A stretch of DNA of 50,798 bases from Nemertoderma westbladi (Eukaryota > Animalia > Xenacoelomorpha), in contig JAUCBJ010005936.1 in assembly GCA_032718475.1 (NCBI GenBank), positions 1 through 50,798 of the forward strand, read 5' to 3'. The notes under the pieces were generated by a model. That model ran no database searches. It saw only the letters and a list, made by a program, of their open reading frames with translations, and was not told the DNA's origin. Made by a program: the position numbers and the translations under genes. Below are positions 1 through 49,284 of the stretch, one piece after another. Position 1 is the first letter of the stretch; every line of letters begins with the position of its first letter.

Positions 1-716
1 TATCTACTACATCCTAGGCTCTATCTTTACGGAGTTGCAGAGTCCTATACACTTCCCCAGTCTACCGCTAGAGGGTGAAATGTCTGAAAATTAACATCTT
101 CTCCAACTTTGTTATTTACAAACGGTTTAGACTGAAACTTGGTAGGCATCTACTACAGCATAGGCTCTACCTTTACGGAGTCGCAGAGTTGTATACAGTT
201 CCCCTATCTGCCGCTAGAGGGCGAATTGTCTGATAGTGAACACCTCATCCCAATTGGTTCTCTTTAATCCCTTTGAGCTGAAACTTGGCAGGAATCTACT
301 GCAGCATATTCTGTATCTTTACGGAGTCCCAGAGTCGTCTACAGTTCTTCAGTCTACCGCTAGAAGTCTGAATGTGAACATCTACACCAATTTTGTTATT
401 TACAATCTGTTTAAGCTGAAACTTGAAAGGCAGGCATTTTACTTCACCATAAACCCCACCTTTACCAAACTGCAGCGCCGTCTGCATTTCACCAGTCCGC
501 AGGTAGAGGGTGGATCTGAAAGTGATCATTTTCTGGAAATTTTGTTATTTACAATCTGACTAAAGTTGAAACTTGACAGTTATCTCTTATGGGGGTGGTG
601 TTTTATTTAATGATGGTGTCTGTTCCGTATGCAGTTCTCCAATCTCCCACACATATTCATATATCATCTGCACGTGCACTAGAAAGCTGTGGCCCGAAGG
701 GCCACAGGCTTTCTAG
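1..716 (+). mobile_element. Non-autonomous Helitron-type element, subfamily A (5'-truncated by window edge)
   Basis: Ends in hairpin GTGGCCC-GAA-GGGCCAC followed by CTAG (713-716); near-identical to 4229-4952; ~146-bp internal repeats. Confidence 0.85.
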
Positions 717-2834
717 TCTATATATATAAATATCATGTGTCTGTCTGTCTGTTTGTTTGTCTGTCCAAGCTATACGTTTCTACACACAAGCACCAATCTG
801 AGCTCGCGATACATCGAACGAAAGCTCTCGTCACGAGCACGTGCACTGTCGCTATCTCGAGTCTTATTTTACGCGTTTGTTTGCGTGAATGCAGATTTCG
901 TGAATTTGGTACCGGTAGCGCAGTAGGCCTAGCAGTTCATTCTGTCACTCTACATGTTGGGTCCGACTATTAGGCTACTTTTTGATACCAGACTTAATCT
1001 GTTCTAAATGATACTTTGCAGATCCGGTCCCGACCATAGATGCAGATTTCGTGAATTTGGTACCGTTAGCGCAGTAGGCCTAGCAGTTCATTCTGTCACT
1101 CTACATGTTGGGTTCGACTATTATTATTATGCTACTTTTTGATACCAGACTTAATCTGTTCTAAATGATACTTTGCAGATCTGTTCCCGACCATAGACTG
1201 TGTGTTTGGGAGGACACTGATCAATCTGCAGTTCTCCAGTCTGACGCTAGGGGGCGAAATATCCGAAACTGAAAACATCTCCCATTTCGTTATTATTAAA
1301 GCCTTTTAGCTGATACATGGTAGAGGTCTTTTACCCCATAGGCTGTGTGTTTGGGGAGGATGCTGACCAATCTGCAATTCCCCAGTCTGCCGCTAGGGGG
1401 AGAAATATCTGAAAGTGAAAACCTTATGCCATTTCTTTGTTTATAATGCTTTTTTGCTGATACTTGGCAGAGGCCTACTACACCATACAGCGTGTTTGGG
1501 GAGGAGCTAGAATCAGTCTGCATTTCTCCAGTCTACCGCTAGGGGGCCAAATATCTGAAAGTGAAAACCTTATCCCATTTCGTTATTAATGATGGTTTTA
1601 GGCTGACATTTGACAGATGCGTATTACACCATATGGTCTGTGTTTGTGGAGGACCCCCAACTACCTGCAGTTCCCCATTCGGCCGCTAGGGGGCAAAATA
1701 TCTGAAAGTGAAAACCTTATCCCATTTCGTTGTTTATACTACTTATAGGCTGATACTTGGCAGAGGTCTACTACACCATAGGCTGCGTGTTTGTGGAGAA
1801 CTCTGACCAATCTGCAATTCCTCTGTCTGCCACTAGGGGGCCAAATGTCTGAAAGTGAAAACCTTATCCCATTTCGTTATTAATAATGCTTTTAGGCTGA
1901 CACTTGGCAGATGTGTATTACACCATATGGTGTTTGTCTGTAGAGGACGCCCAAATACCTGCAGTTCTCAATTCGGCCGCTAGGGGGCGAAATATCAGAA
2001 AGTGAAAACCTTATCCCATTTCGTTGTTTATAATACTTATAGGCTGATACTTCGCAGAGGTCTACTACCCCATAGACTGCGTTTTTGTGGAGAACTTTGA
2101 CCAATCTGCAATTCCTCACTCTGCCGCTAGAGGGTGAAATGTCTGAAATGAAAACCTTCTCCCATTTCGTTGTTTCTAATGCTTTTTTTTATACTTGGGA
2201 AAGGTATACTACACCATAGGATGTGTGTTTGGGGCGGATGCTAACCAGTCTGCAGTTCTCCAGTATATGGCTAGAGGGTGCGAAATGTCTGAAAAGTGAA
2301 AACATTCTCACATTTATTTATTAAAAATGCTTTTAGGCTGAGACTTGGCAGAGGTCTACTGTACTACATCATTGGCTGCGTCTTTGGGAAGGACGGTGAC
2401 CAGTCTGCAGTTGTCCAGTCCGCCACTAGGGGACGAATTGTCTCAAAGTGAAATCCTTCTCCCATTTAAATTCTTTAGAGTTGATTCTTGGCAGCGATCT
2501 AAAAGTACTGTACAGTACCTACTAAACTAAATAAACTATAGGTTGTGTTTACGAGGATGTTCTACAGTTTAACCTTTTTCCATATTTTTACTATTTTGTA
2601 ATCCTTTGGAAATGATACTTGGTAGGCATTTACTATATACAACAAGCCTTATGTTGTACATAGTAAAGTTTGTAGTAAAATAGCTTCAGTAATTTTGTTT
2701 GAGAGAACACTCAATCATGTGACGTTTTGTTAAGTTAAGTTAAGTTAATTAATTAATTACAGAATTAATGTTTGGAATGGTGAATAGGCTTGTGAACTAG
2801 AAAGCCGTGGCCCGAAGGGCCACTGGCTTTCTAG
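717..2834 (+). mobile_element. Non-autonomous Helitron-type element, subfamily B
   Basis: Starts TCTATATATATAAATATC, then a (GTCT)n tract, nine 146-147-bp repeats, terminal hairpin and CTAG at 2831-2834; paralogous to 4953-7384; internal ~150-bp duplication near 889-1195. Confidence 0.85.
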
Positions 2835-4952
2835 TCTAATATATATAAATATCGATTGTCTGTCTGTCTGTGTGTTTGTCATCGGCTATACAATCGAACC
2901 CATCTCGATGAAATCTCGCTTGCTATATCTCGTTAGAAAGGTCTCGCCCTAACTCGTTGCAACGTAATACTCAGAGCCGTCTGAAGTTCGCCCGTCTGCC
3001 GCTAGAGGGCGATTTTCGTGATTTTCGGGCGAAATTTATCGAATTATTTCGGTTCTTCTATCGGTAATTAATGATTTAGAGGGCTAACATTTATCCCACC
3101 TGGTATAAAATTAACATGGGTAGATTCGCCGTGTCCCATTCTCACAAAGTTTTTATTTTATTCGAGTGTTTAATATAAATATGTATGATTATTTATTGAT
3201 TAAAAATCAAATAGTGTATAAATATGTCATATTCGCCAAGCACGATCGAATTGGCCTATTGGTATTGAATAGGGAAGGATTGTTTTCTGTATCATAGCAA
3301 CGTTAAGGTAATTATTGAACTCGCAGCTAGCTGGCTGGGCACAGATAAGGAGCAAGCAGGCTGGAGTGTTGATTGGGGTGGGTTTGGGTTGTCTATTGCG
3401 AATTGCTCAGAGTAATTCTGCTTTTTCAATCATTGGCTGCATGGAAGGAGAGGTTTATAACATTTTTGTTTTACTGTTATGAATATTAAAAGTAAAATAA
3501 TTATTTCTCTACGCCTGTACTTACTGTATTATTATTTTATCTAATATTATACATCTAATCTCGATGAGTGGTAGCTATATACTGCAGCATAGGCTGTATA
3601 TTTCCGGAGTCACTGGGTTGTCTACAGTTCCCCAGTCTACCGTTAGAGGGCTAAATGTCTGAGAGTTAACATCTTCTCCAACTTTATTATTTACAATCCG
3701 TTTTGACTGAAACTTGGTAGGCATCTACTACAGCATAGGCTGAATCTTTACTGAGTCGCAGAGTCCCTTTTGAGCTGAAACTTGGCAGGTATCTACTACA
3801 TCCTAGGCTCTATCTTTACGGAGTTGCAGAGTCCTATACACTTCCCCAGTCTACCGCTAGAGGGTGAAATGTCTGAAAGTTACCATCTTCTCCAACTTTG
3901 TTATTTATAATCCATTTAGACTGAACTTGGTAGGCATCTACTACAGCATAGGCTATATCTTTACTGAGTCGCGCAGAGTTGTCTACATTACCCGCGTCTG
4001 CCGCTAGAGGGCGAAATGTATGAAAGTTAACATCTCCTCCAACTTTGTTATTTACAATCCTTTTAGACTGAAACTTGGTAGACATCTACTATAGCATAGG
4101 CTATATCTTTGTGGAGTAGTAGAGTCGTCTACAGTTCCACAGTCAGCCGCTAGAGGGGGAATTGTCTGATAGTGAAAACCTCATCCCATTTGGTTCTTTT
4201 TAATCATTTTGAGCTGAAACTTGGCAGGTATCTACTACATCATAGGCTGTATCTTTACGGAGTTGCAGAGTCCTTTACACTTCCCCAGTCTACCGCTAGA
4301 GGGTGAAATGTCTGAAAGTTAACATCTTCTCCAACTTTGTTATTTACTAACGGTTTACACTGAAACTTGGTAGGCATCTACTACAACATAGGCTGTACCT
4401 TTACGGATTCGCAGAGTTGTATACAGTCCCCCCATTTGACGCTAGAGGGCGAAATATCTGATAGTGAACACCTCATCCCATTTGGTTCTTTTTAATCCCT
4501 TTGAGCTGGAACTTGGCAGGAATCTACTACAGCATATTCTGTATCTTTACGGAGTCCTAGAGTCGTCTACAGTTCTTCAGTCTACCGCTAGAGGGTGAAA
4601 TGTTTGAATATGAACATCTACACCAATTTTGTTATTTACAATCTGTTTAAGCTGAAACTTGAAAGGCAGGCATTTTACTTCACCATAAACCCCATCTTTA
4701 CCAAACTGCAGCGCCGTCTGCATTTCACCAGTCCGCAGGTAGAGGGTGGATCTGAAAGTGATCATTTTCTGGAAATTTTGTTATTTACAATCTGCCTAAA
4801 GTTGAAACTTGACAGTTATCTCTTATGGGGGTGGTGTTTTATTTAATTATGGTGTCTGTTCCGTATGCAGTTCTCAAATCTCCCACACATATTCATATAT
4901 CATCTGCACGTGCACTAGAAAGCTGTGGCCCGAAGGGCCACAGGCTTTCTAG
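2835..4952 (+). mobile_element. Non-autonomous Helitron-type element, subfamily A (complete)
   Basis: Starts TCTAATATATATAAATATC + (GTCT)n; ~146-bp repeats 3580-4800; hairpin and CTAG at 4949-4952. Confidence 0.85.
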
Positions 4953-7384
4953 TCTATATATATAAATATCATGTGTCTGTCTGTCTGTTTGTCTGTCCAA
5001 GCTATACGTTTCTACACACAAGCACAAATCGGAGCTCGCGATACATCGAACGAAAGCTCTCGTCACGAGCACGTGCACTGTCGCTATCTCGAGTCTTATT
5101 TTGCGCGTTTGTTTGCGTGAATGCAGATTTCGTGAATTTAGTACCGGTAGCGCGGTAGGCCTAGCAGTTCATTCTGTCACTCTACATGTTGGGTCTCGAC
5201 TATTATGCTACTTTTTGATGCGCATCTACGTGATGCAGACTGCCCCGAGCACATGGACGCGAAACGTGGTTATATCGAGGCTAATTTTATGTATCATTTA
5301 TGCGTGAATGCGTATTATTACTACTGTATTATTGTGGTCAAATTGGGCTATACCATAACCATTTTCGGCCAAATTACTGATCAACCGGTTACACCATCAG
5401 TCTCAATCTGTGATAATGCATATAATATAATATGATAAATGATACTTTGCAGATATATTCCTGACCATAGACTGCGTGTTTGGGAGGACACTGATCAATC
5501 TGCAGATCTCCTGTCTGCCGCTAGGGGGCGAGATGTCCGAAACTGAAAACCTTTTCCCATTTCGTTATTATTAAGGCCTTTTAATTGATACGTGGCAGAG
5601 GTATACTACACCATAGGCTGTATGTTTGCGGATGATGCTGACCAATCTTCAATTCCCCAGTCCGCCGCTAGGGGGAGAGATATCCGAAAGTGAAAACCTT
5701 ATCCCATGTCGTTGTTTCTAAGGCTTTTTTGCTGATACTTGGCAGAGATCTACTCTCCATAGACTGCGTGTTTGTGGAGAACTCTGGCCAATCTGCAATT
5801 CCTCTGTCTGCCGCTAGGGGGCGCAATGTCTGAAAGTGAAAACATTCACCCATTTCGTTATTTATAATGCTTTTTTGCTGGTACTTGGCAGAAGTCTACT
5901 ACACCATAGACTGCGTGTTTGTAGAGAACTCTGAATAATCTACAATTCCTCTGTCTGCCGGTAGGGGGCGCAATGTTTGAAAGTGAAAACCTTCACCCAT
6001 TTCGTTGTTTTTAATGCTTTTAGGCTGACACTTGGCAGATGTGTATTACACCATAGGGTGTGTGTCTGGAGAGGACGACGAACAACCTGCAGTTCTCTAT
6101 TCGGCCACTAGGGGGCGAATATCTGAATGTGAAAACCTTATCCCATTATTGATGTTTATAATGTTTTTAGGCTGATACTTGTCAGAGGTCTACTTCATCA
6201 AAGACTGCGTGTTTATGGAGAACGCTGACCAATCTGCAATAGCTCTTGTCTGCCGCTAGGGGGCGCAATGTCTGAAAGTGAAAACCTTTATGCATTTTAT
6301 TATTTATAATGCTTTTTTGCTGATACTTGGCAGTGGTCTACTACACCATAGGCTGTGTGTTTGGGGAGGAGCTAGAACCAGTCTGCATTTATCCAGTCTA
6401 CCGCTAGGGGGCCAAATGTCTTGAAAGTGAAAACCTTATCCCATTTCGTTATTAATATGCTTTCAGGCTGACACTTGCCAGATGTGTATTACACCATAGG
6501 GCGTGTATCTGGGGAGGACGCCGAACAAACTGCAGTTCTCCATTCGGCCGCTAGGGGGCGAAATGTCTGAAAGTGAAAACCCTCTCCCATTTCGATGTTT
6601 ATAATGCTTTTAGGCTGATGCTTGGCAGAGGTCTACTACACCATAGACTGCGTGTTTGAGGAAAACTCTGACCAATCTGCAATTTCTCAGTCTGCCGCTC
6701 GAGGGTGAAATGTCTGAAATGAAAACCTTCTCCCATTTCGTTGTTTCTAATGCTTTTTTTCTTATATTTGGGAAAGGTACTACACCATAGGGTGTGTGTT
6801 TGGGGCGGATGCTAACCAGTCTGCAGTTCTCCAGTATACTGCTAGGGTGCGAAATGTCTGAAAAGTGAAAACATTCTCACATTTATTTATTAAAAATGCA
6901 TTTAGGCTGATACTTGGCAGAGGTCTACTGTACGACATCATTGGCTGCGTCTTTGGGAAGGACGTTCACCAGTCTGCAGTTCCCCAGTCCGCCACTAGGG
7001 GACGAATTATCTGAAAGTGAAATCCTTCTCCCATTTAAATTATTTAGAGTTGATTCTTGGCAGCGATCTAAAATTACTGTACAGTACCTACTAAATTTAC
7101 GAGGATGATAACCTGCAGTTCTACAGTTTAACCTTTTTCCATATTTTTACTATTTTGTAATCCTTTGGAAATGATACTTGGTAGGCATTTACTACAGTAT
7201 ATACAACAAGCCTTATGTTGTACATAGTAGTTTGTAGTAAAATAGCTTCAGTAATTTTGTTTGAGAGAACACTCAATCATGTGACGTTTTGTTAAGTTAA
7301 GTTAATTAATTAATCTAATGTTTGGAATGGTGAATAGGCTTGTGAACTAGAAAGACGTGGCCCGAAGGGCCACGGGCTTTCTAG
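4953..7384 (+). mobile_element. Non-autonomous Helitron-type element, subfamily B (longer copy)
   Basis: TC start, about eleven 146-148-bp repeats, hairpin and CTAG at 7381-7384. Confidence 0.85.
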
Positions 7385-9051
7385 TCTATATATATAAATA
7401 TCCTCTGTCTGTCTGTGAGTCTGTGAGTCTATGAGTCTGTGAGTCTGTCCAAGCTATACACTCCGACACACGAGCACCAATCTGAGCGAATGATACATCG
7501 ATCGAAAGCTCTCGTCCCAAGCACGTAAACTATCGCTATCTCGAGGCTTATTTTACGCGTATGCTTGCGTGAATGCGTATTTTGTATTCGCTGCAACATG
7601 TTGTGTGATAAAATCTCAAAGTGATTCGAATATTCCTTTTGGCAGTACAGGCCTGGCAAAGCTGAGAGTTAGTTCGCAAGGCAGCTAGCTACTTGCAGAC
7701 CAATCATAGGTGGCCTGCAGCAGGCTGGGTTGGTTAAGTAGTAATCTCAATAAATAGGACCCAGCAGGAGAGTGGAGTGGATCTACTGTGATTGGTTCTT
7801 GACTTACATTGGTAAGAACAAGCAGTAAATCTTAGATTAGCTTTTTTTCAGTTCACATATTGTTTACAATCATAAACACAAAATTATTCAATTATTCATT
7901 TTTGCAATGTACCGGATGGGTGCTAGCGAGGTAGGCCTAGCAGGTCGTCAGTCCGTCATCCTACAAGTTGGATCTTGACTCTATCATGTGCGTGCACCTA
8001 TATAATGCAGACCATCCTCAGCCCGTGAACTTGAATTGTAAAGGCTATCTCGAGGCTGATTTTTTACACATTTACTTGATACTTGCATGAATGCGTCTTG
8101 GAGGTAAAATTGCATTATTCTGCAGTTGTTTTGTTATCGGAGAAATTACTGATCAGCAAGCAGGAAATTGTAACAGCAGTTATTGCATCATCGTAATTCG
8201 TAACCACTCTGCTGACACTTTGCAGAATAAATTCTACCTGACCATAGCTGCGTGTTGGGAGGACGCCGACCAGTTTGCGGTTCTTCAGTCTGCCACTAGG
8301 AGGCGAAATGTCTGAAAGTGAAAATCTTATCCTATTTTGTTATTAATAATGATTTTTAGCTGATACTTAGGTCCTTTACACAATATGTTTATAATGTTTT
8401 TTGCTGATACCAAGCAGAGTATACTACACCGTAGGGTGTGTATTTGGGCTTGGGGAGACGATGACTAATCTACAGTTCCCCATTCTGCCGCTATTAGGTG
8501 ATGAAATGTCTGAATGAGGAAACCTACAATTTTGTTATTTATGAATGCTTTTTTGCTGATACTTGGCACTTGGCAGAGGACTACTACACCATAGTCGTCA
8601 TGTTTGGGGAGGACGCTAACCAGTGCATAATTATGCAGTCTGCCACTAGGGGGCGAAATGTATGAAATTAGAACCTTCCATTTTAATACGATAGAGTTGC
8701 TGCAGTGACCTACTGCACTATAGATTATGTTTGCGAGGACGCTAACCACTACTCTGCAGTTATACAGTTTTCCACTAAGGGGAAAATATCACACACAGTT
8801 TAAACCTTTTCACATTTTATTATTTGTAATCCATTGGAGGTGTTACTTGGAAGGTATCTACTACAACATAAAGCCTTATGTTTATTATTGTATGTAGCTG
8901 CAACTAAAACGGGATCAGTCTGTTAGTCGTATGTAAAGTTTTGTTAAGTTAATTAATTAATTTATTTATGTTTGATATTGTCCATTGATTGATTGATTGT
9001 ATAGAAGCTTGTGAACTAGAAAGCCGTGGCCGAAGGCCACGGGCTTTCTAG
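7385..9051 (+). mobile_element. Non-autonomous Helitron-type element, diverged B-related subfamily C
   Basis: TC start, (GAGTCTGT)n tract, degraded internal repeats, hairpin GTGGCC-GAA-GGCCAC and CTAG at 9048-9051 followed by T as expected for a Helitron target. Confidence 0.8.
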
Positions 9052-9435
9052 TTCTAATTAATAAATATACAATGTTCTAGAACGTTTTGTTTATCTCATA
9101 AGTAGCTTGGCAACAATGCAATGCCTACATGATAATACTAGTACATGGATATTAGGCCTAATAGATAATTAAAAGTTCTAAAACATTGTTTATTTATTAA
9201 ATAGAATAAATGGCCTACAGCGGAAACAAATAGATGCAACATTCGAATGCCCATATCTCAGCTATTTCCCAACCAAATACAAATATTTCTACATAATTTG
9301 GAATCCTTGCACTGTCAGCTTTCCACTAGTATTAACGGTGTAACGGAGACACCGTTTTTAAACGCTTGTAGCTGAAGAATGAAAGCAAAAATAAAAATTC
9401 TGGGTCACCCACTAAGGGGGAGGGAGATGAAACTA
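9052..9435 (-). mobile_element. Partial foldback MITE related to 14151-15011
   Basis: 9073-9122 matches the reverse complement of 14560-14610; 9335-9435 matches its arm (ACGGAGACACC...AAACGCTTGTAGCT...GAATGAAAGCAAAAATAAAAATTCTGG). Confidence 0.7.
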
Positions 9436-9619
9436 CCAGTGCCGTTATAAACTATTAACATCGCTCCAAGAGCCACCATAAATATAAGCTCACTTATTTG
9501 TAACATAATTTATGTCACTTTTACATTTATTTATACAGCAACTAATTTAATTTGTCCAGTTCCTATCACTTATAATGTATATACAATCATTTCGAAATGT
9601 TACAATTTTGGAATACAAC

Positions 9620-9765
9620 TACATACATACTTTTTGCAAAGTACTTTACAGTGTTCTGATCCTCGTGGCTTTATTTTCACTCACTCACTAACGTTCGTTT
9701 GTGTACCAAAGCCACTCGGATCATCACACTGTAAAGTGCTACTTTACACATAAGTATGTAAATAG
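9620..9765. mobile_element. ~145-bp palindromic hairpin element
   Basis: Nested inverted pairs TACATACT/AGTATGTA, ACTTTACAGTG/CACTGTAAAGT, GTGGCTTT/AAAGCCAC; similar architecture at 12621-12740 and 26999-27146. Confidence 0.6.
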
Positions 9766-10181
9766 TTATTACATTCATACCGGTAACATCATAGGTACAT
9801 ATTACATAATACTTCCAGCCACCCACCAATTTTTATACTAGCTATAGTTCTTTTTTTATAAATTCTTTGAAAATGTGAGCTGTTGTTAGCTAATTATTAA
9901 TAATGTTCTAGAATAAATATTTCATTCTAGAACTTTTTAGAAAGGTTAAAAATTCCCATATAGGCCTATACTAGCTAATTGTTGTATTTTTAATTTTTTA
10001 TAAGTTCTAGAACATTAATTTTATTCTAGAAAAATTTCTAAAAAGTTAAAAATCATTAGATAAATAGATATATTTATTTATACATTATGTAAAAACAATA
10101 ACAAATACACCAAACAAAGTACAGGTATTGTCCAACATAACATATAGGATTACCCCTAAAGCTTTGCAACTTATTTCCAAG

Positions 10182-10725
10182 GACCCCTGTAACAGAAAGC
10201 TGGTCCCTGTACCAGAAAACTGGTCCCTGTACCAGAATGCTAGTCCCTGTACCCGAAAGCTGGTCCCTGTACCAGAATGCTGGTCCATGTACCAGAATGC
10301 TAGTCCCTGTACCAGAATGCTGGTCCCTGTACCAGAAAGCTGGTCCCTGTACCAGAAAGCTGGTTCCTGTTTCCTGTACCAGAAAGCTGGTCCCTATACC
10401 AGAAAGCTGGTCCCTGTACCAGAAAGCTGGTTCCTGTACCAGAAAGCTGGTCCTTGTACTAGAAAGCTGGTCCCTGTATCAGAAAGCTGGTCCCTATACC
10501 AGAAAGCTGGTCCCTGTACCAGAAAGCTGGTTCCTGTACCAGAAAGCTGGTCCTTGTACTAGAAAGCTGGTCCCTATACCTGAAAGCTGGTCCCTGTACC
10601 AGAAAGCTGGTTCCTGTACCAGAAAGCTGGTCCTTGTACTAGAAAGCTGGTCCCTATACCAGAAAGCTGGTCCCTGTACCAGAAAGCTGGTTGGTCCCTG
10701 TACCAGAAAGCTGATACAGGGACCA
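10182..10725. repeat. 20-bp minisatellite (CCCTGTACCAGAAAGCTGGT)n, ~26 copies
   Basis: Directly visible tandem unit; ends in an inverted arm (CTGATACAGGGACCA). Confidence 0.95.
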
Positions 10726-11040
10726 TTTACTAAATTTAAATTTATTAAATTTATATATAGGAAACTTTGTTGGGAAATTGAGAAATTGCCACTGTGCGTA
10801 CTTGATATCAACTGGTTTAATTATGGTATTCGGTAGGCCCCTATATATTGGATTTACATTAAAGCTATAGATATTCAATGCACTGTTGACTACGAGTTCA
10901 AAGTACATCACTAAGTTACTTACAGTACTATGACCACAGTGTTTAGTTTACAATTATCACAGTCAAGACATTATATGAAGGGTTGTTAGTTCCATTTTTA
11001 GGGGTGCTTTTAGGTTAAGAAAATGTTACAGAGTATTGAG

Positions 11041-11649
11041 TTATCTTCTGATCTTTTCGATCTTCTTAATATCAGGAAGCTTTACGCCTTCGTGCCTCAC
11101 TATTCTCCCATCTCTAGCGTCTTCAAAATGTTTGGGGGGTCCTTTAACAATGAAGGTATTTTTAGGTTTGTCATCGTCTTCTGTATAGGAACGTCTATGT
11201 CTACCAGTGGCTGATACCTTACTGGGTTTAATGGAATCAACCACATTCTTTGATCTAGAATCCGCAGGCACCTTATTTTTCTTTATAGAAATGGTTCTAT
11301 TGGCCCCACCTTGCCGCATCCATTTCCCATAACTTGCGGGAAGCACATTCTTGTTGACATTACTGTGAGGTTTCGGGTAAGGCACAGGCTCAGGTGCTGT
11401 GTACGACTCAAAGTTGGAGTCACTCATGGAGTCACTGCTGGAATCACTGCTGGAATCACTGCTGGAGTCATTACTGGGAGATTTATTATTATTATCAGTT
11501 GCGGCCTTACTGTAACTCTGTAGGATTTCTCCAAAAGCTTCAGGCATCTCACGTTCAGTATCACGGAAGCTGAATGAGTCAGCATCAGATGAAACGATAT
11601 CACTTCGGTCTTTATTGGTTCCAGTAGGTTTATACGATGATCGATACAT
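11041..11649 (-). CDS. Hypothetical intronless 202-aa Ser/Asp-rich protein with basic C-terminus
   Basis: 609-bp ATG-to-TAA ORF, GC-richer than its flanks, A-rich leader, TATAAAT about 65 bp upstream; no recognisable domain. Confidence 0.5.
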   Translation of the reverse strand: MYRSSYKPTGTNKDRSDIVSSDADSFSFRDTEREMPEAFGEILQSYSKAATDNNNKSPSNDSSSDSSSDSSSDSMSDSNFESYTAPEPVPYPKPHSNVNKNVLPASYGKWMRQGGANRTISIKKNKVPADSRSKNVVDSIKPSKVSATGRHRRSYTEDDDKPKNTFIVKGPPKHFEDARDGRIVRHEGVKLPDIKKIEKIRR

Positions 11650-11986
11650 ATTTTTTATTTTAGTTTTTATTTTTATTTTCGCCCACCTGAACTTCCCAAG
11701 ATCTACGCGATATTTATAAAACAGCTAAACTCTTTGGAACGTCGATATGTATAATTGAACATTAAAATCAGTCAAAAAAGCCTTCTAAAACAGTAAGTTT
11801 AACATTAATTATATTCTAAAAAAATTTATAAAAAGTTAAAAATCATTCGCAAATATAGCTAGTTTCTGGTATTTCTATGGTGTATAAAGTGTTACAGAAC
11901 AAGTTTTTCTTATTCTAGTCTTATTCTAGTTTCTAGTTTTTTAAACAATTTTTCGCTTTAAATGGTCTCAAAGAAAATTAGTTGGT

Positions 11987-12400
11987 ACTAGTGTTATAGG
12001 TACACCCACCCCCCCCCCCCCCCCCCCCCATAAATAAATTTAAAAAAAAAATTTATATTTTTTGAACTGTTCTAGAACAAAAACTATTTGTTCTATAACT
12101 TTTTTTCTAGTTCTGAATAGCTCACATGTTCCAGAACATTATTAAAAAATAAAAATAGTACCCGGTACATTAATTTTTTGAATTTTTTAAATTGTTCTAG
12201 AACAAAAAATATTTTTTCTAGAAAATATATATATTTTTTATATTTTCATATATATTTTAATAGCTAATAGCTAAATAGCTAATAGCTAATAGCTAAATAG
12301 CTAATAGCTAATAATAGCTTAATACATGTTCATAAAAAGAAATAGCAAAAACTAGCTAGTAAAAAAAATATGAGTGGGGGTGTACCTATAACACACTAGT
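11987..12400. mobile_element. MITE with ~20-bp terminal inverted repeats
   Basis: ACTAGTGTTATAGGTACACCC ... GGGTGTACCTATAACACACTAGT; internal TTCTAGAA repeats; TSD not clear. Confidence 0.6.
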
Positions 12401-12747
12401 GCCCCCAGTGACATAATGGAGAGGAAGGTTTTAATGCAGAAACATGAATTTGTTCTAGAATAAGCAATATTTATACAAAATTCCTGTTTACCAATAAGTC
12501 ATAATGCGTAACTTGAGATGCACTGTAAATGCAACTAATACATTAATAAAGTCGTGAAAATAATGTTCCATTTAAAATTAAAACTACCGGTACCGGTACG
12601 TATTAGGCCTACATGTTAAATTACGTGGAACATATTTTCACTTTGCTCTCTAATATTTATTAACCTCGCTACGTTCGGTAAATAAAATATCTTGAGTATA
12701 GTGAAAATAATGTTCTACATTATTTACCATGCAATAAATACTTATTT

Positions 12748-13745
12748 GCATTGGTACACCTTGGGTACCCATTGACCAGATTTTTTATACTAGCTAGTTT
12801 TTGCTATTTTTTAGAAGTGTTATAGAAGATGTGCTGCTATCAATTTTGATAATTATTTTTGTTCTAGAACACCTTTTTTTTTTTGTTCTAGAACACATTA
12901 TTTAATTTTTATAATTGCTAGTTCTTTCAACTTATTTTTTTATAAATGTTATAGAACATGTGTTAGCTATCAATTTTGATACATATTTTTGTTCTAGAAC
13001 ATTTTTTGAAAAAAAAATTAAATAGTACAGGAATCATCATATAAATCCTTATTTAAAAAAATAGTCATTGGAAATGATTAGACCTCTTAGAAACTGCAGA
13101 ATTTTGAATCTAGAACTTCTAACACACAAACACACACCAATACGGCCCAATGTAACACACAAACACACACCAATACGGCCCAATGGTGTAAAACGGGGGT
13201 CGTCGGAATATTTTAAACAAACCGGGAGGCATCTGTCATTATTTATTTCGCGAATATTAATATACAAATCGGGCTTCTCGTATTTCATTAGCAAACTGGG
13301 GCCGGTATTACCTACCCTATTACACACCAAATCTTTAAACACACACACATTTTTTCCGAGTTTTGATAACAAATTGTGGAGTTCGAGATATTAATATAGA
13401 AATCTCACATTTATACTATATTTGATCTCCTGATTCCGAATCTTCAATTAATGCAAACCGGGATCTCCACAGTTTGTTTTTTGCTCCACAGTTTATGGGT
13501 GAAAAAGATGGCGTGTCCACAGTTTACATCTTCCGTCAGAACAGTTGTGTTTGATGTTCTAAATAAGTTTTCTTTTTTTAATATCTTATAAAAAGTACTA
13601 GCTAACACAAAATCAAAATTACTAGCTACCATCCTACTGTCCGAAGGTCAAATATTTGTTATAGAAAAAAAAACCTCATGATAAAAGCCTTTTTCATATG
13701 AAAAAAAATTGGTCAAACTATTGGTACCCAAGGTCTACCAATGCC
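12748..13745. mobile_element. Non-autonomous Mutator/MULE-like element
   Basis: TIR GCATTGGTA(C/G)ACCTTGGGTACC at both ends; 9-bp TSD TACTTATTT at 12739-12747 and 13746-13754. Confidence 0.75.
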
Positions 13746-14150
13746 TACTTATTTTTACTAAAATGGGTACCCAAAACGGAGGAATTATCCGAATCGTACG
13801 GTCTTAGACGAAGCCTAACAAAATCCGCTGCGTTAGGAGAGTTGGTGAACACGTGTGATTTATACCTATTTATAGCAAAGAGTAATCAAAGTACAAAAAA
13901 AAAATATTATCCGAAAAGTAAAGAGTTATATTGTTTTATAATTACTGTACAACCGCCCTTTCACAGAATATATTAAATATAATTTATTGCGAATCTTTAA
14001 TGATGGCTTGAGTGTAGGCCTATACTATAGGCCTATGTATAATCTTTAAATAATAAACGCTTTCCAGAATAATATCTAAATGTTGGCAAGGTATTTAATT
14101 ATAAATGCTTTGGTAAGTTTAATAGCAATGGTCGGTATGTACGTACAGTA

Positions 14151-15011
14151 CACCATGTCCTGGAATATAGTGTCGTTATTGAGGTACCTGGACCCCCCCC
14201 CCCCCCCAAATCTTTCTACAAATCTTAATGAGATTGCATGAAATTTGAAACAGAGATAGTTTCACCTCCCTCCTCCTTTCTGGGTGAGCCAGAATTTTTA
14301 TTTTTGCTTTCATTCTTTAGCTACAAGCGTTTGAAAAAGGTGTCTCCGTCGGTATTGCGCCAGTTACACTGCAGTTAATTCCAAATATGAATCACAATCT
14401 GAAATTCGTCGTAAAATAGCTGAGATATGATGTTAAAATGTTGCATGATTTAGCATCTGCGCGAGACTATTTTATTCTATTTAATTAATAATCCTTATTC
14501 TAGAACACTTTGTTTATAGGCCTATACGAATAGCTACACAATAGTATGATTACAGAGTTATTGCATTGTTGCCCAGCTACGTTTGGGATAAACAACATGT
14601 TCTAGAATATGGTGAATTTTTTTAATAGAAAAAAATAACCTTACACAGGTGTAAAACCATGCAACTTTAGAAGGCCCATATCTCAGCTATTTAACGACGA
14701 AATTCAGATTGTGATTCATATTTGGAATACTTGCATGGTCATCTTTCCGTCAATATCAAAAAATCGCTATAAGGTTGAAGAATAACTGCGGTGTAACTGG
14801 CGCAATATCGACGGAGACACCTTTTTCAAACGCTTGTAGCTAAAGAATGAAAGCAAAAATAAAAATTCTGGCTCACCCAGCAAGGAGGGGGGGAGGTGAA
14901 ACTATCTCTGTTTCAAATTTCATGCTCTCTCATTAAGATTTGTAGAAAAATTAGGGGGGGGGGGGGGGGGGGGCGTGTCACTGAATTACGACACTATTCC
15001 AGGACATGGTG
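14151..15011. mobile_element. Tc1/mariner-type foldback MITE (861 bp)
   Basis: TA|CACCATGTCCTGGAATA ... TATTCCAGGACATGGTG|TA; arms complementary for about 300 bp; TA TSD. Confidence 0.9.
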
Positions 15012-15135
15012 TATAGCAGTCTGGCAGTGTCTCACTTTATTTTAAATATCTTTACACTGAGATCGCATGAAATATTTAACAAAAAGCTTTTCGGCGAATT
15101 AACTACGATTATTATTAATTCTGCGGACACAGGAG

Positions 15136-18100
15136 AAGGTTATGTAATGTTTAATCGTTGCTCGTACGTAAGGGATAAGGTTATGTAATGTTTAATCGTT
15201 GCTCGTACGTAAGGGATAAGGTTATGTAATGTTTAATCGTTGCTCGTACGTAAGGGATAAGGTTATGTAATGTTTAATCGTTGCTCGTACGTAAGGGATA
15301 AGGTTATGTAATGTTTAATCGTTGCTCGTACGTAAGGGATAAGGTTATGTAATGTTTAATCGTTGCTCGTACGTAAGGGATAAGGTTATGTAATGTTTAA
15401 TCGTTGCTCGTACGTAAGGGATAAAGTTATGTAATGTTTAATCGTTGCTCGTATGTAAGGGATAAGGTTATGTAATGTTTAATCGTTGCTCGTATGTAAG
15501 GGATAAGGTTATGTAATGTTTAATCGTTGCTCGTACGTAAGGGATAAAGGTTATGGGACGTTTAATCGTTGCTCGTATGTAAGGGATAAGGTTATGTAAT
15601 GTTTAATCGTTGCACGTATGTAAGGGATAAAGGTTATGTAATGTTTAATCGTTGCTCGTACGTAAGGGATAAAGGTTATGGAACGTTTAATCGTTGCTCG
15701 TACGTAAGGGATAAGGTTATGGGACGTTTAATCGTTGCACGTATGTAAGGGATAAAGGTTATGGGACGTTTAATCGTTGCTCGTATGTAAGGGATAAGGT
15801 TATGTAATGTTTAATCGTTGCACGTATGTAAGGGATAAAGGTTATGGAACGTTTAATCGTTGCTTGTATGTAAGGGATAAGGTTATGTAATGTTTAATCG
15901 TTGCACGTATGTAAGGGATAAAGGTTATGGAACGTTTAATCGTTGCTCGTACGTAAGGGATAAAGGTTATGGAACGTTTAATCGTTGCTCGTACGTAAGG
16001 GATAAGGTTATGGTACGTTTAATCGTTGCACGTATGTAAGGGATAAAGGTTATGGGACGTTTAATCGTTGCTCGTATGTAAGGGATAAGGTTATGTAATG
16101 TTTAATCGTTGCACGTATGTAAGGGATAAAGGTTATGGAACGTTTAATCGTTGCTCGTATGTAAGGGATAAGGTTATGTGATGTTTAATCGTTGCACGTA
16201 TGGAAGGGATAAAGGTTATGGAACGTTTAATCTTTGCTCGTACGTAAGGGATAAAGGTTATGGGACGTTTAATCGTTGCTCGTATGTAAGGGATAAGGTT
16301 ATGTAATGTTTAATCGTTGCACGTATGTAAGGGATAAAGGATATGTAATATTTAATCGTTGCTCGTACGTAAGGGATAAGGTTATGAAATGTTTAATCGT
16401 TGCTCGTACGTAAGGGATAAAGGTTATGGGACGTTTAATCGTTGCTCGTATGTAAGGGATAAGGTTATGTAATGTTTAATCGTTGCACGTATGTAAGGGA
16501 TAAAGGTTATGTAATATTTAATCGTTGCTCGTACTTAAGGGATAAGGTTATGTAATGTTTAATCGTTGCTCGTACGTAAGGGATAAAGGTTATGGGACGT
16601 TTAATCGTTGCTCGTATGTCTGGGATAAGGTTATGTAATGTTTAATCGTTGCACGTATGTAAGGGATAAAGGTTATGTAATATTTAATCGTTGCTCGTAC
16701 GTAAGGGATAAGGTTATGTAATGTTTAATCGTTGCTCGTACGTAAGGGATAAAGGTTATGGGACGTTTAATCGTTGCTCGTATGTAAGGGATAAGGTTAT
16801 GTAATGTTTAATCGTTGCACGTATGTAAGGGATAAAGGTTATGTAATATTTAATCGTTGCTCGTACGTAAGGGATAAGGTTATGTAATCTTTAATCGTTG
16901 CTCGTACGTAAGGGATAAAGGTTATGGGACGTTTAATCGTTGCTCGTATGTAAGGGATAAGGTTATGTATTGTTTAATCGTTGCACGTATGTAAGGGATA
17001 AAGGTTATGGAACGTTTAATCGTTGCTCGTACGTAAGGGATAAAGGTTATGGGACGTTTAATCGTTGCTCGTATGTAAGGGATAAGGTTATGTAATGTTT
17101 AATCGTTGCACGTATGTAAGGGATAAAGGTTATGTAATATTTAATCGTTGCTCGTACGTAAGGGATAAGGTTATGTAATATTTAATCGTTGTTCGTACGT
17201 AAGGGATAAGGTTATGGGACGTTTAATCGTTGCTCGTACGTAAGGGATAAGGTTATGGGACGTTTAATCGTTGCTCGTACGTAAGGGATAAGGTTATGGG
17301 ACGTTTAATCGTTGCTCGTACGTAAGGGGTAAGGTTATGGGACGTTTAATCGTTGCTCGTACGTAAGGGATAAGGTTATGGGACGTTTAATCGTTGCACG
17401 TATGTAAGGGATAAAGGTTATGGAACGTTTAATCGTTGCTCGTACGTAAGTGATAAGGTTATGTAATATTTAATCGTTGCTCGTACGTAAGGGATAAGGT
17501 TATGTAATGTTTAATCGTTGCTCGTACGTAAGGGATAAGGTTATGGGACGTTTAATCGTTGCTCGTACGTAAGGGATAAGGTTATGTAATATTTAATCGT
17601 TGTTCGTACGTAAGGGATAAGGTTATGGGACGTTTAATCGTTGCTCGTTCGTAAGGGATAAGGTTATGGGACGTTTAATCGTTGCTCGTACGTAAGGGAT
17701 AAGGTTATGGGACGTTTAATCGTTGCTCGTACGTAAGGGATAAGGTTATGGGACGTTTAATCGTTGCTCGTACGTAAGGGATAAGGTTATGGGACGTTTA
17801 ATCGTTGCTCGTACGTAAGGGATAAGGTTATGGAACGTTTAATCGTTGCTCGTACGTAAGGGATAAGGTTATGTAATGTTTAATCGTTGCTCGTACGTAA
17901 GGGATAAGGTTATGTAATGTTTAATCGTTGCTCGTATGTAAGGGATAAGGTTATGGAACGTTTAATCGTTGCTCGTACGTAAGGGATAAGGTTATGTAAT
18001 GTTTAATCGTTGCTCGTACGTAAGGGATAAGGGATAAGGTTATGTAATGTTTAATCGTTGCTCGTATGTAAGGGATAAGGTTATGGAACGTTTAATCGTT

Positions 18101-18638
18101 GCTCGTACGTAAGGGATAAGGTTATGTAATGTTTAATCGTTGCTCGTACATAAGGGATAAGGTTATGTAATGTTTAATCGTTGCTCGTACGTAAGGGATA
18201 AGGTTATGTAATGTTTAATCGTTGTTCGTACGTAAGGGATAAGGTTATGTAATGTTTAATCGTTGCTCGTACGTAAGGGATAAGTTATGGGACGTTTAAT
18301 CGTTGCTCGTACGTAAGGGATAAGGTTATGTAATGTTTAATCGTTGCACGTACGTAAGGGATAAGGTTATGTAATGTTTAATCGTTGTTCGTACGTAAGG
18401 GATAAGGTTATGGAACGTTTAATCGTTGCTCGTACGTAAGGGATAAGGTTATGTAATGTTTAATCGTTGCACGTACGTAAGGGATAAGGTTATGTAATGT
18501 TTAATCGTTGCTCGTATGTAAGGGATATGTAATGTTTAATCGTTGCTCGTACGTAAGGGATAAGGTTATGGAACGTTTAATCGTTGCACGTACGTAAGGG
18601 ATAAGGTTATGGAACGTTTAATCGTTGCTCGTACGTAA
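15136..18638. repeat. 41/42-bp minisatellite, ~85 copies
   Basis: Unit AAGGTTATGTAATGTTTAATCGTTGCTCGTACGTAAGGGAT; variants alternate in a higher-order pattern in the middle of the array. Confidence 0.97.
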
Positions 18639-18949
18639 TCAGATGTCATTTGCGTCAATTTTTCGATTTCCATGGAGGGAGACCTTGCCGTATAATTTTG
18701 ATTGTTTCGCAGCAAGTGTGTTTAGTGTTTGATTATCTTTGATTATCAGTGTCAGCTGGGCGGTGAGCGATTATCTAGTTTGTGTAGGTTAATATTATAC
18801 CGGTCAGCCGGTACATACTGTAATATTTCCGTGTTTCTTGTATAATTATTTTGTACCGGTACGGTATCATTCATAGCAGCATTGTATACATACAGACATA
18901 CCAGATAACCGCGTCTGTGTCTGTCTAAACAAAAGGCAGACAATGGGTG

Positions 18950-20173
18950 ATGGAAATGGAAGGTCAAGATGATATTTCTATGGGACAGTCAGAAAGCGAG
19001 ATTGACGACAAATATCGTCTTCTGCCTTCAGAAAGTGGGCCTAGCAACTGTACCAGCACCGGTACCGGCACCGGTACAACACCTGATGGAATAAGAATAC
19101 AAGCGACCGAAACCAAAGACCCTTCCGTTACAGTCATGTCGAATCACTCCAGAAAGTTAATAAAACAGGTTAAAAACTCAACTATTAACTTAGCTGGATT
19201 CATTATCGCCAAATCTCCTTATATCTTCCCGGCAATTGTTCTTGTCTTCCAGTGGTCAGGCGACCCTCTGTCGTTCATACTGATCTGGCCGGTTCTATTC
19301 TGTTTGTTCCTGTTGGGACAGGACCGGCTGTTGTACCACCCAGACAGTCCCAGTCCGACCCTCAGTCTGTACGACCCCAGTCCTCTCTGTGTCGGCGCTG
19401 CCCATGACAGCTTCACTATAACGACTAGCGACCGCGTCAGACTCCACTGTTACCGCCTATCCTACACGCAGGGCCAGCCCCTCTGCACCATTGTATTCCT
19501 ACACGGTAACGCCGGCAGCATAGGTTACCGGCTGCCCAACGCGGTGGAGTTAGTTGCCAGTTGCCGTAGTAACGTGATCCTGGTAGACTACCGAGGTTAC
19601 GGACTCAGCGAAGGGAGTCCGACCGAGCGAGGTCTCTACCTAGACGCCGCAGCGGCGGTCAACCACTCGCTAGACTCGCGAGACGGACTCCCAGTCGTTG
19701 TGTTCGGTCGCTCTATTGGTGGCGCCGTCGCAATAAACGCGGCGACTCGCCACGGAATTAGCAGCCGAATCGCTGCGCTCGTCCTCGAGAACACATTCAC
19801 TGGGATCCCCCAGATGGCCGGGGTTATTAGCAACCTACCATTCCTGAGTAAGTTACCGCGATTCTGTTACCGGAATTACTTCCCTTCCCTATCGCGAGTC
19901 GGTTCGGTTTCCTGTCCGACTCTGTTCCTCAGCGGCGAGTTGGACACTCTAGTTCCCCCCAGCATGGTCAACCAATTGTTTGATGAGTGCGGCTCTGAGA
20001 TTAAGAGATTGGTGCGTTTTACCACGGGTTGCCATGGGTCCACGTGGGGTTGTCCCGGGTATTACCCGGCTATTTCCGAGTTCATCCGGTTGTGTCTCAG
20101 TCCGGAATCCGTTGGGTTGAGTCAGTCCGATATCCGGGTTGTTTCTGCGGACGGTTTAACTAGAGCCGGTTAA
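18950..20173 (+). CDS. ABHD13: Alpha/beta-hydrolase ABHD13 (Bem46 family), single coding exon
   Basis: TM segment then QDRLLYHP, FLHGNAGSIG, VDYRGYGLSEGSPTERGL, nucleophile elbow GRSIGG, LVLENTFT, SGELDTLVP (Asp), GCHGSTW (His); first in-frame ATG at 18950. Confidence 0.92.
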   Translation: MEMEGQDDISMGQSESEIDDKYRLLPSESGPSNCTSTGTGTGTTPDGIRIQATETKDPSVTVMSNHSRKLIKQVKNSTINLAGFIIAKSPYIFPAIVLVFQWSGDPLSFILIWPVLFCLFLLGQDRLLYHPDSPSPTLSLYDPSPLCVGAAHDSFTITTSDRVRLHCYRLSYTQGQPLCTIVFLHGNAGSIGYRLPNAVELVASCRSNVILVDYRGYGLSEGSPTERGLYLDAAAAVNHSLDSRDGLPVVVFGRSIGGAVAINAATRHGISSRIAALVLENTFTGIPQMAGVISNLPFLSKLPRFCYRNYFPSLSRVGSVSCPTLFLSGELDTLVPPSMVNQLFDECGSEIKRLVRFTTGCHGSTWGCPGYYPAISEFIRLCLSPESVGLSQSDIRVVSADGLTRAG

Positions 20174-21435
20174 TATGTTTGTTACCCCTAAATCGGTCTC
20201 CTTGGTATCTACTAATCTCACATCGGAAACAACAAAACTGCACAGAAATGAAAGGGAAACTTGGTATTTTATGTTACGGTTATTTTTTAATGTTCTGATT
20301 TTGTTTAAAAAATTTAATTAAATAATTTAATTCTGGGCAGTTAGTTTTCTTGCAGCAGTTATTTTTTTTATCATTTTTCATATTTTAACATTTAAATTAT
20401 TTAAAATTGTCCAAAAATTTAATCAATTTTTTTGTATAAAAATATTAAAAAATTGTTTTTCATAATTTTAAATTTTGAGAAGTTCTTTATTTTGGTGAAA
20501 ACCGACGTCGCGACTCATCATATGAAACCCTTTTATCAAACTACAAAAATAGGTAAGAAAAGGTAACTGATACAATAAGATCCCCTTAAATTGTTACTTT
20601 TACGTTCGAATGTATTAAATACCCCAAAACTGGGGGAAATATGTTTAATTTTTCCCCCTTTGGAAAACAAGTTACTGTAACCTATTCAGTAATTGGATGG
20701 CGTGGATTTTACATTTTTCCCGTCGAAAAAGCAATGCAAGAAAATGTGAAAATATTTTGTGATTTTTGAAAATATTTTTACAAGTAATTTGAGTGAAATC
20801 CTATTCTATTCACAAACTCAAAAGTTATTACAACTTTAGTGGCTCAAAGGCGAACTCTTAAACTGAAAACGGAACCCAATGTCCATTAGTTTAGTTGCGG
20901 TCTCTCTACTAAGGTCATAAAAGTTACAGAACATTTAACAATTTCTTTTACAAAAAGGAAGTAACATTTTTTGTCTGACTTTTTAATCCGCATTTTCTGG
21001 AAAAAGTAAAAGTGGAGTTAGTTCGAGGCCGAGAGTTTTCGAAAAATTTAATCTCCTCATTAGGACTAAGAGAAGTAACAAGGAATTACTTACGGCTGTA
21101 AACCTTAAATTTATATTAATTAACCCTGTTAATTAATTCCCCGAGACGATATATTTATTCACCGAGGATGAATTTACGACCCCCCTCCCCCGGTAATTCC
21201 ATGTTCTAGAACAAATCTACAATATTTTATATTCTTTATTTAGCTGCATCAAATTACACCGCTTAAATTTACAATATTTGGGTCTAACGGGTCTAACTAA
21301 CGTGCAACTGTATTGATAAACAATTACACAATAGGAAATTATCTTAATAATTTTGTTATATGAATATAAATATGGGAACAGTTCCGCATGCAATAGAATT
21401 TTCTAAAAAAATGTTATGAAATATATGAAATGAAA

Positions 21436-22412: not shown

Positions 22413-23624
22413 ATGACAGGTATTTTATTATCCTCTGATGCCCAGTTAGGTATTTCACCATCTTCTGATCGCCTCTGTTTGCCTTACATCAGGGTTGCAG
22501 CTCGGAGGGAGACGCAATCCTTGGATGAGTTCGTGTTAAATAATTGGTATGCAAAGTACTCACCAGGAAATAAAAAAACAATAAATAATTGGTATGCAAA
22601 GTACTCACCAGGAAATAAAAAAACAATAAATAATTGGTATGCAAAGTACTCACCAGGGAAGAAAAATAAAAAAACTATAAATAGTAATCACCTTATGATG
22701 AAAAGAAACGAAACAAATAACTATATAGTAGGTGATCAACACACAATGACATTCAAGAATGTTTTAATAGAAATCATCAACATTGTTAATCATCAAAGCT
22801 ATGAAACTGAAAGTAAATATTTCAATGTAAATGTGTCGATCACGGATAAGTTATTCACTCTGAAGTTCTTAGACAAGTTCACGGATCCAAAAGGCCACAG
22901 GAAAGTCAAGAGAAAAGTCAGGTTTACTGGAATCGGTTATCAATGTAATCAAAAGAAAAAAGTCAAGGTATTTGTTAAAAATGCTCTTGCATGTGTCTTT
23001 GAAGTTGTATTCCATTTATGTTCAACTGATCTCACCATAAAATTCAGCAATGCTTTGAAAGAACATGATATATTAGAGTGGAAGTTCGGCAGTTCCCAGA
23101 ACGAAGTACCCAATAACCGAGATCTACTGTTCCAAAGTAACCTGGTAATAGCTATGTTTGATTGGGTGGAAACATTCTGCCTGACTATGAACAAATTATA
23201 TGATGATTTCGAATATCCCGACGTCGACATGCTTGAAAAGATCATGGAGAAAATTATAAGAAAGGATGAACTTCCCCTTGGCCCTGATGCGCAGGATGAT
23301 AATATCCGTCGTGTAATGTGTTTCCTGACGCTCGATACTCTATCGAGTTTCATTGCTGAACTGAGTCACAAGGAGGATAAGATTGTAATGGAAGCGTTAT
23401 GTAGCTTAGTTGGAGTTCATCTCCTAAAGGTTGTGGAAGCTAAGATACGATTTTACGATTGTCGAGCTGCCCTAGAATTGTTGCGCAGAGTTCACGCTTT
23501 TCTGCGCGAAGGTACCGGAAATGTAGAGAGAGATGTTTACTATATCGGGAAGATATCAGCTACTATACGGGAACTGGGGGACGCAGTGTTTAAGTCAATG
23601 ATTAATCAACGGAGTAGGAATTGA
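22413..23624 (+). CDS. Hypothetical intronless ~400-aa protein
   Basis: 1.2-kb ORF in AT-rich DNA with AAAATG start context; globular-looking, helix-rich C-terminal half; no family recognised. Confidence 0.6.
   Translation: MTGILLSSDAQLGISPSSDRLCLPYIRVAARRETQSLDEFVLNNWYAKYSPGNKKTINNWYAKYSPGNKKTINNWYAKYSPGKKNKKTINSNHLMMKRNETNNYIVGDQHTMTFKNVLIEIINIVNHQSYETESKYFNVNVSITDKLFTLKFLDKFTDPKGHRKVKRKVRFTGIGYQCNQKKKVKVFVKNALACVFEVVFHLCSTDLTIKFSNALKEHDILEWKFGSSQNEVPNNRDLLFQSNLVIAMFDWVETFCLTMNKLYDDFEYPDVDMLEKIMEKIIRKDELPLGPDAQDDNIRRVMCFLTLDTLSSFIAELSHKEDKIVMEALCSLVGVHLLKVVEAKIRFYDCRAALELLRRVHAFLREGTGNVERDVYYIGKISATIRELGDAVFKSMINQRSRN
22538..22685 (+). repeat. In-frame 45-bp tandem triplication (NNWYAKYSPGNKKTI)
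   Basis: Three copies of AATAATTGGTATGCAAAGTACTCACCAGG at 45-bp spacing. Confidence 0.9.
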
Positions 23625-39669: not shown

Positions 39670-39899
39670 GATTTGGTTCTCCGATTTTTAAAACGCGCCG
39701 CTGCCAATTTGAGTCAGCCGTTTAAGGTGTTGGTTCCAACCCGCCGGTTGCCAATTAATCAACGTCGAAGGATCCTATCGAAACAACTAGGTGACTTCGT
39801 GTTGGTGTACAACAGGGAGACAGAGCGATCTCGTAAACACAACGAGACGGGGAACTCCAGTACGGAACGGATGTTCGCTGCCTTCACTAACAGAGCCAA
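39670..39899 (+). CDS. Uncharacterised multi-exon gene, exon 4
   Basis: TTTCTTAG acceptor; DLVLRFLKRAAANL...RMFAAFTNRA; AA|GTAAGT donor, phase 2. Confidence 0.8.
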
Positions 39900-49077: not shown

Positions 49078-49284
49078 GTTAGTATTATTTAATTATATTT
49101 ATTTTAATTCACCAATAAACCGCTGGAGGCGTCATTTTCTTGTTAGGAGATGATGAGACTTGATAGTGAACTAATGAATGATGATGCATCGGATACTAGA
49201 ACAATAAGGCAATATATCTATCTAGGCAATTTATCTAAGTCTTAGATATTTTACTTGCTAATATTTCCATTATTTGGGTTTCAG

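Follow-up and report, generated by a model that had tools for sequence, protein, structure and literature searches.

Tandem arrays of CTCF sites are known from single fixed loci with demonstrated roles in looping, such as DXZ4 and the Igh 3′ CBE super-anchor. Bound CTCF sites have also been spread by transposons, which are reported to include retrotransposons in mammals, hAT-Tip100 elements and long terminal repeat (LTR) repeats in lamprey (PMC5504073) and non-autonomous DNA transposons in zebrafish (PMC7182764). Separately, central repeat arrays and tandemised copies are described for several Helitron-like elements, namely DINE-1, DINE-TR1, the HINEs of mites and Culex, and the oyster CgHINE/Cg170 (PMC4067079, PMC12628747, PMC9659126). 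Here we analyse contig JAUCBJ010005936.1 (50,798 nt, deposited under Nemertoderma westbladi; the window hereafter), whose bases 1–9051 are five non-coding Helitron-type units joined head to tail, designated U0 to U4 and all on the + strand, with internal monomers of ca. 146 bp that carry a two-part CTCF-like motif. Both ingredients, CTCF sites on transposons and repeats inside Helitrons, have thus been described, but their combination was not found in the literature searched: no paper on CTCF motifs as the basis of internal repeats in Helitrons turned up in the open-access literature, subscription papers lying outside that scope.

The units resemble DINE-1, DINE-TR1, the HINEs and CgHINE in being non-coding rolling-circle elements with a microsatellite near one end, a satellite-like internal array, a 3′ hairpin and tandemised copies. 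They differ from those HINEs in running from TC to CTAG without subterminal inverted repeats, and in having a monomer with a two-part CTCF-like motif, a feature that the accessible text of those papers does not mention. As in mammals, lamprey and zebrafish, the CTCF-like motif is carried by a likely mobile element, which would multiply it through the genome; in those cases, however, the sites are proven by chromatin immunoprecipitation, the hosts are vertebrates and the accessible text names neither a Helitron nor a tandem array, whereas the candidate sites described here number 4–11 per unit, in a host that does not resemble a vertebrate. Like DXZ4 and the Igh 3′ CBE super-anchor, the train packs many co-oriented sites closely together, but it belongs to a family that is probably high-copy and likely mobile. 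Helitron internal repeats have been proposed as chromatin barriers in C. elegans too, where Helitron minisatellites are reported to become periodic An/Tn cluster (PATC) barriers (bioRxiv 10.64898/2026.08.08.743475). Unlike the repeats of the window, where the motif is in the repeat consensus, the C. elegans unit is of 35 bp, mechanical and protein-independent; the element gained it once inserted, and the species lacks CTCF.

Two-part CTCF-like motif of the internal monomers

A monomer profile search of the window gave 39 matches, all on the + strand and all between positions 6 and 8858, which comprise 36 near-full monomers (4, 9, 8, 11 and 4 in U0 to U4, respectively), two fragments and one match to the motif only (2966–3012). 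This agrees well with an earlier reading of the same DNA made without database searches (the sequence-only reading), which had counted about 35 monomers of 146–147 bp in a single orientation. The monomers fall into families B (20 monomers), A (12) and C (4), with a mean identity of 0.73–0.78 within families A and B and of 0.60–0.69 across families. All 36 share one ancestor and, therefore, the motif has to be counted as one observation, not 36.

The motif was searched for with a 31-base pattern that joins the upstream module from PMC12885311 to the IUPAC core given in the sequence-only reading; scoring was by a printed consensus and this core, not by a position weight matrix. Allowing up to three mismatches, the pattern occurs at 22 places, namely in 21 of the 36 monomers and once by itself within the U2 leader (the solo site), and at none in each of 100 dinucleotide shuffles; the site that had been singled out near position 1666 is the best of them, and matches perfectly (Table 1). 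The monomer consensus contains 21 of the 28 specified bases of the composite consensus for the two-part vertebrate CTCF site (PMC12885311, S3 Table), a score that was reached by one of 20,000 shuffles of the monomer consensus and has an analytic chance of ca. 1e-5 per monomer family. Its agreement with the printed core is of 11 out of 15 positions. A linker of 5 bases, which places the upstream module 8 nt from the CC of the core and is the length in the published consensus, is the best placement in 35 of the 36 monomers, bearing out the spacing of about 8 nt that the sequence-only reading had given for CTCF. The further claim that nearly every monomer contains a full site is too strong: 21 monomers match within three mismatches, and both parts are well kept together (strict core plus an upstream module of at least 8/10) in only 8/36. 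Taken singly, the strict core is present in 11/36 monomers and in the solo site, and an upstream module of at least 8/10 in 27/36. Motif quality is best in family B, and the sequence TGCA is intact in 18/20 monomers of this family, 2/12 of family A and 1/4 of family C.

The 13-letter core at position 1683 is identical to the core in the chicken HS4 probe, and the IL3 probe has the same two-module geometry as the monomer motif, both as given in the accessible text of PMC12885311. The monomers share with these vertebrate sites both modules, the 5-base linker and a T at the centre of the core; unlike them, they read CTG for TGG, have AA after GGCG and an unconstrained upstream module and, in family A, contain an A at upstream position 3. 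Zinc finger 8 (ZF8) of CTCF is reported to span the linker, and ZF9–11 to read the upstream part (PMC10484683).

The solo site lies outside the arrays. Its flanks match the monomer consensus at 15/42 and 21/73 positions, near background on the downstream side, and the aligned leaders of U1, U3 and U4 have no site at this position. The motif may have originated in this solo site, or the site may be a patch that was copied into the leader out of a monomer.

Two further blocks of the monomer are conserved. One of them, GAAAGTGAAA, is situated about 20 bases 3′ of the core (e.g. at 1704–1714) and resembles an IRF/PRDM1-type motif; the other, TGA(T/A)ACTTGG, changes almost as slowly as the core. 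Elsewhere in the window, a lone CTCF-core-like match with one mismatch, the sole one beyond position 9100, occurs at 25650–25662 on the − strand and has a C after GGCG.

Constraint on the core

Pairwise identity between monomers was higher in the motif columns than outside the motif, with 0.72–0.75 vs. 0.63–0.66 under three of four redundancy settings and 0.70 vs. 0.62 under the fourth (p from 0.02 to 0.04). When changes were counted on a tree built from all 36 monomers, the core had 2.77 per column, compared with 4.15 for composition-matched columns (p = 0.0035), although gene conversion among monomers can distort such counts. Corrected for composition, the core ranks second among the 146 windows along the monomer, and none of the 103 windows outside the site is equally slow. 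Removal of the duplicated units U0 and U1, which leaves 23 of the 36 monomers, places it first of 146 (p = 0.005), and constraint on the core is also found in family B alone (p = 0.009). The core columns T, A and G underwent zero, one and one changes on the tree, respectively, and four columns of the upstream module a single change each. Some blocks outside the motif, TGATACTTGG among them, change only slightly faster than the core. A p value of 1e-4 from an earlier tree test was set aside because its CpG class had two columns outside the site.

A second repeat family in another animal

Metagenome contigs were scanned, without a shuffled-pattern control, for two cores lying 120–148 bases apart, which returned 127 stretches, with ca. 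1,500 estimated on the basis of 6 of 64 parts. We analysed 125 of these loci (L001–L125). Among 457 distinct monomers, 455, present at 117 loci, belong to a single family of 144–147 bp. The repeats sit in abundant HINE-like elements (e.g. L031, positions 2410–4187, L001 and L044), whose shared flanks resemble those of HINEs in having a terminal hairpin (12/125 loci) and an inverted motif of 9 bases, and the loci lie among LINE- and Gypsy-like open reading frames typical of animal DNA. Outside the core, no homology of this family to the elements of the window was found with nhmmer (0 matches at 1e-3), by consensus alignment (p = 0.48 and 0.45) or in the leaders and tails.

Six of the 125 loci (three duplicates and three from outside the family) were dropped for the consensus alignment and for the comparison of core identity. 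The core of 731 monomers from this family has an identity of 0.80 vs. 0.67 elsewhere in the monomer, a difference that is biased upwards. These data are suggestive of one second case of a repeat built around a CTCF-like core, obtained by a targeted search that had no shuffled control. The paired-core pattern occurred 0 times in viral contigs. The three loci from outside the family were rejected as cases: the match in L011 lies in prokaryote-like coding DNA and is due to chance, and L027 and L078 do not contain a tandem array with a period of ca. 146 bp.

Origin and possible role of the motif

We give an even chance to the explanation that the element family captured a host CTCF site and multiplied it in its 146-bp repeat, and that the core has been kept since bound CTCF would help the element, not host loops. 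A host CTCF site would have been taken up within a 146-bp segment of the element family, and tandem duplication of this segment would have multiplied the site. The units would be mobilised by a RepHel protein encoded elsewhere, and the train probably grew as new units landed at the A|T junction where the opening T of an older unit adjoins an A of the host. Host CTCF is predicted to bind a subset of the monomers, mostly from family B, and once bound would keep the chromatin of the element open or shielded; binding that aids the element would account for constraint on the core while the upstream module drifts. Since the sites recur every 146 bp, they could not all be bound with a nucleosome between, which predicts either partial occupancy or a nucleosome-poor array, and if neighbouring genes were insulated at all, this would be a side effect. 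Support for this explanation comes from the ends of the units (see below), the contrast with shuffles, the published linker length, the core letters shared with HS4, the rank of the core, the motif-only solo site, the unit-specific depth expected of separately amplified units, the bound CTCF sites on non-autonomous DNA transposons of zebrafish and lamprey, and the family from the other animal.

Several observations weigh against this explanation. CTCF is reported as a bilaterian protein that was lost in flatworms and some nematodes (PMC10658182), and the upstream motif is reported to be absent in Drosophila (PMC12885311). According to the accessible part of a 2026 preprint, invertebrate CTCF motifs carry or need a 3′ terminal C, which by our own reading corresponds to a C after GGCG; only 3/36 monomers have this C, and we therefore assign it mild weight against binding. 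Moreover, C12 of the core is kept in 22/36 monomers and lost in 14/36, nine of which have a T, as from CpG decay. The evidence for constraint is modest for the core, and there is none for the upstream module, where TGCAG is no slower than the average 10-bp stretch (rank 76/146, p = 0.53); the whole 31-bp site ranks 31/146. Constraint on the core is not significant in family A alone (p = 0.11) nor among 13 close monomer pairs, in which the core differs at 8/165 positions vs. 113/1465 outside (p = 0.12), and without correction for composition 16 of the 103 windows outside the site change no faster than the core. The sequence-only reading had the whole motif staying recognisable while the rest of the monomer drifts; this holds for the core, the slowest block after correction, but not for the upstream module or the site as a whole, and other blocks are nearly equal to the core. 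A composite match of 20/28, with a poor core, was also found at 50077, in one of seven control stretches of the window. Lastly, the family from the other animal has a CTCF-like core, but an A-tract in place of the upstream module; its 323 monomers without the exact query core show identities of 0.66 in the core and 0.66 elsewhere, a comparison biased downwards, and its core frequently forms one hairpin arm (25/60 folds, z below −2).

The motif might instead be a neutral passenger, that is, a captured site or a chance look-alike in the founding monomer that was multiplied by repeat dynamics and is now decaying without function. The single ancestor of all copies fits this alternative, as do the unconstrained upstream module, the non-significant close-pair test and the almost equal slowness of other blocks, and changes at core positions 3 and 12 are of the CpG type; additionally, a match expected at ca. 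1e-5 per family will sometimes be met by chance when very many repeat families are read. Nevertheless, the core comes out slowest of all blocks in two sets of monomers once composition is corrected for, the two modules are correctly spaced and a motif-only solo copy exists at 2981, so that we regard a neutral passenger as somewhat unlikely. Quite unlikely, in our view, is that the core serves the machinery of the element, or another zinc-finger protein, with an incidental likeness to CTCF. Its most invariant letters, CTAG, are the end letters of Helitrons, and the near absence of change in the columns T, A and G, the comparable rate of blocks such as TGATACTTGG and the hairpin arm formed by the core in the other animal would all be consistent with such a function. 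However, no hairpin was found before or after the core CTAG in the monomers of the window (0/36 in both tests), unlike at the true ends, and neither the G-run that follows CTAG nor the correctly spaced upstream module would be explained.

A role of the copies as oriented multi-site insulators, or as cohesin loop anchors used in the folding of the host genome, appears very improbable. The sites are indeed co-oriented and in tandem, and the upstream motif is reported to mark enhancer-blocking sites in mammals, with 2–4 tandem sites being needed in one cited screen (accessible text of PMC12885311). Yet tandem duplication alone gives co-orientation, and the train is situated amid satellites and MITE-like (miniature inverted-repeat transposable element) repeats, with no tie to a regulated gene. 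Besides, invertebrate CTCF orthologues are described in a replacement study (2026 preprint, accessible part) as binding but building no loop-extrusion domains, and the loop-anchor reading is therefore lowered. Xenacoelomorphs are absent from the sampling in PMC7535936, no statement on CTCF in this group was found in the literature searched, bioRxiv supplements being outside its scope, and the frog and Nemertoderma genome preprints contain nothing on CTCF in repeats.

Beyond capture by one family, it is conceivable, if unlikely, that nucleosome-length internal repeats centred on a CTCF site arose repeatedly in rolling-circle transposons of unrelated animals, as a portable boundary with which the element shields itself, and that, if the host is a nemertodermatid, two-part recognition (ZF9–11 plus ZF3–7) reaches the bilaterian root; the two-part binding mode is reported to date from the vertebrate ancestor at the latest (PMC5504073). 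If the monomers are bound, each insertion would bring in 4–11 CTCF sites of common orientation, and much of the host's complement of CTCF sites could come from such a family where its copy number is high. Binding would also offer a testable reason for the persistence of central repeats of ca. 150 bp in Helitron-like elements, as well as a handle on the role of CTCF outside vertebrates and on the age of the two-part binding mode. If they are not bound, the motif is no more than a good likeness in an otherwise ordinary train of Helitrons.

Structure of the train and ends of the units

Helitrons (HLE1) start with TC at their 5′ end, finish with CTRR at their 3′ end and insert between A and T without duplication of the target. 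The four complete units of the train start with TC; behind it come an AT-rich stretch, a (GTCT)n microsatellite and a leader that can be aligned among the units, and all five unit ends consist of a hairpin of 36–38 bases closing on CTAG (Table 1), in keeping with the Helitron identity given to them in the sequence-only reading. Hairpins of equal stability were obtained in 0 of 200 shuffles for each of the four ends folded (U0, U1, U3 and U4; z from −6.5 to −7.6). A subterminal 3′ hairpin is described as a feature of Helitrons (PMC12628747), and Helentrons and HINEs (HLE2) as having subterminal inverted repeats at both ends and a TT target (PMC4067079). An inverted pair joining both ends was absent in U1, U2 and U4, the three of the four complete units that were examined; a HINE identity was thus rejected, and the units are considered of Helitron type. 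The CTAG of the internal cores was likewise discarded as a Helitron terminator, for lack of the hairpin.

At the unit junctions CTAG is followed immediately by TC, and there is a T after every CTAG. The T following the last CTAG is preceded by an A in two of three paralogous copies of the 3′ flank of the train, whose 5′ end lies outside the window. No open reading frame of at least 150 codons was found in 1–9051, and no Rfam families in 1–15000. The leader of U1 contains a direct duplication of 151 bp (889–1197), unrelated to the 146-bp monomer.

Contigs from four sequencing runs were compared with the train, which had very deep and unit-uneven cover in three of them (X1, X2 and X4). Depth in X1 was ca. 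17,000–46,000 for U2, 1,900–21,000 for U1, 600–8,600 for U3 and 1,900–5,600 for U4, although summed contig depth does not equal copy number and X1 is possibly the source of the window itself. The differences in depth from unit to unit are taken only to suggest abundant units with separate histories of amplification.

Table 1. Units of the Helitron-type train, their terminal hairpins and selected CTCF-like sites
Feature	Coordinates	Strand	Description
U0	1..716	+	Family A, 3′ part only (5′ end beyond the window); 4 monomers; 95% identity to the 3′ part of U2
U1	717..2834	+	Family B: TC start, (GTCT)n, leader, 9 monomers (1185–2499), tail, hairpin, CTAG
U2	2835..4952	+	Family A: 8 monomers and 2 fragments (3581–4820); deepest read cover in the train
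U3	4953..7384	+	Family B: 11 monomers (5459–7068); 85% identity to U1 across 1.7 kb
U4	7385..9051	+	Family C: 4 diverged monomers (8236–8858); terminal CTAG, then T
U0 3′ terminal hairpin with CTAG	679..716	+	z −6.5
U1 3′ terminal hairpin with CTAG	2797..2834	+	z −7.6
U2 3′ terminal hairpin with CTAG	4915..4952	+	Letters identical to the U0 hairpin
U3 3′ terminal hairpin with CTAG	7347..7384	+	z −7.4
U4 3′ terminal hairpin with CTAG	9016..9051	+	z −7.2
Best two-part CTCF-like site	1665..1695	+	0 mismatches; 10-bp upstream module, 8-nt gap, 13-bp core
Solo two-part site	2981..3011	+	U2 leader, outside the arrays; 27/31 identity to the monomer consensus

Other features of the window

Downstream of the train there are five satellite arrays, at 10185–10713, 15132–18638, 28165–39209, 39844–42951 and 43161–48686, with units of 20, 41, 44, 65 and 12 bp, respectively. 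Exon-like stretches near 25510–25690, 27800–28000, 48770–49080 and 49290–49400 suggest that some of these arrays lie within introns of one gene. Two MITE-like elements with long inverted arms are situated at 14167–14997 and 49763–50288, the second of which contains the 20/28 match at 50077.

Directly after the 41-bp satellite there is an intronless, GC-rich, ABHD13-like gene (18956–20173, + strand). It diverges strongly from all relatives in the databases, most full-length matches being 39–45% identical, and it places the host among the animals, on a long branch with no supported sister. An open reading frame of 403 codons (22413–23624, + strand) has no homologue and no Pfam family, and includes an in-frame tandem repeat of 45 bp, and a serine-rich open frame of 227 codons on the − strand (11041–11724) has no Pfam family either. 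The window also contains a gene for tRNA-Leu(TAG), at 24298–24380 on the − strand.

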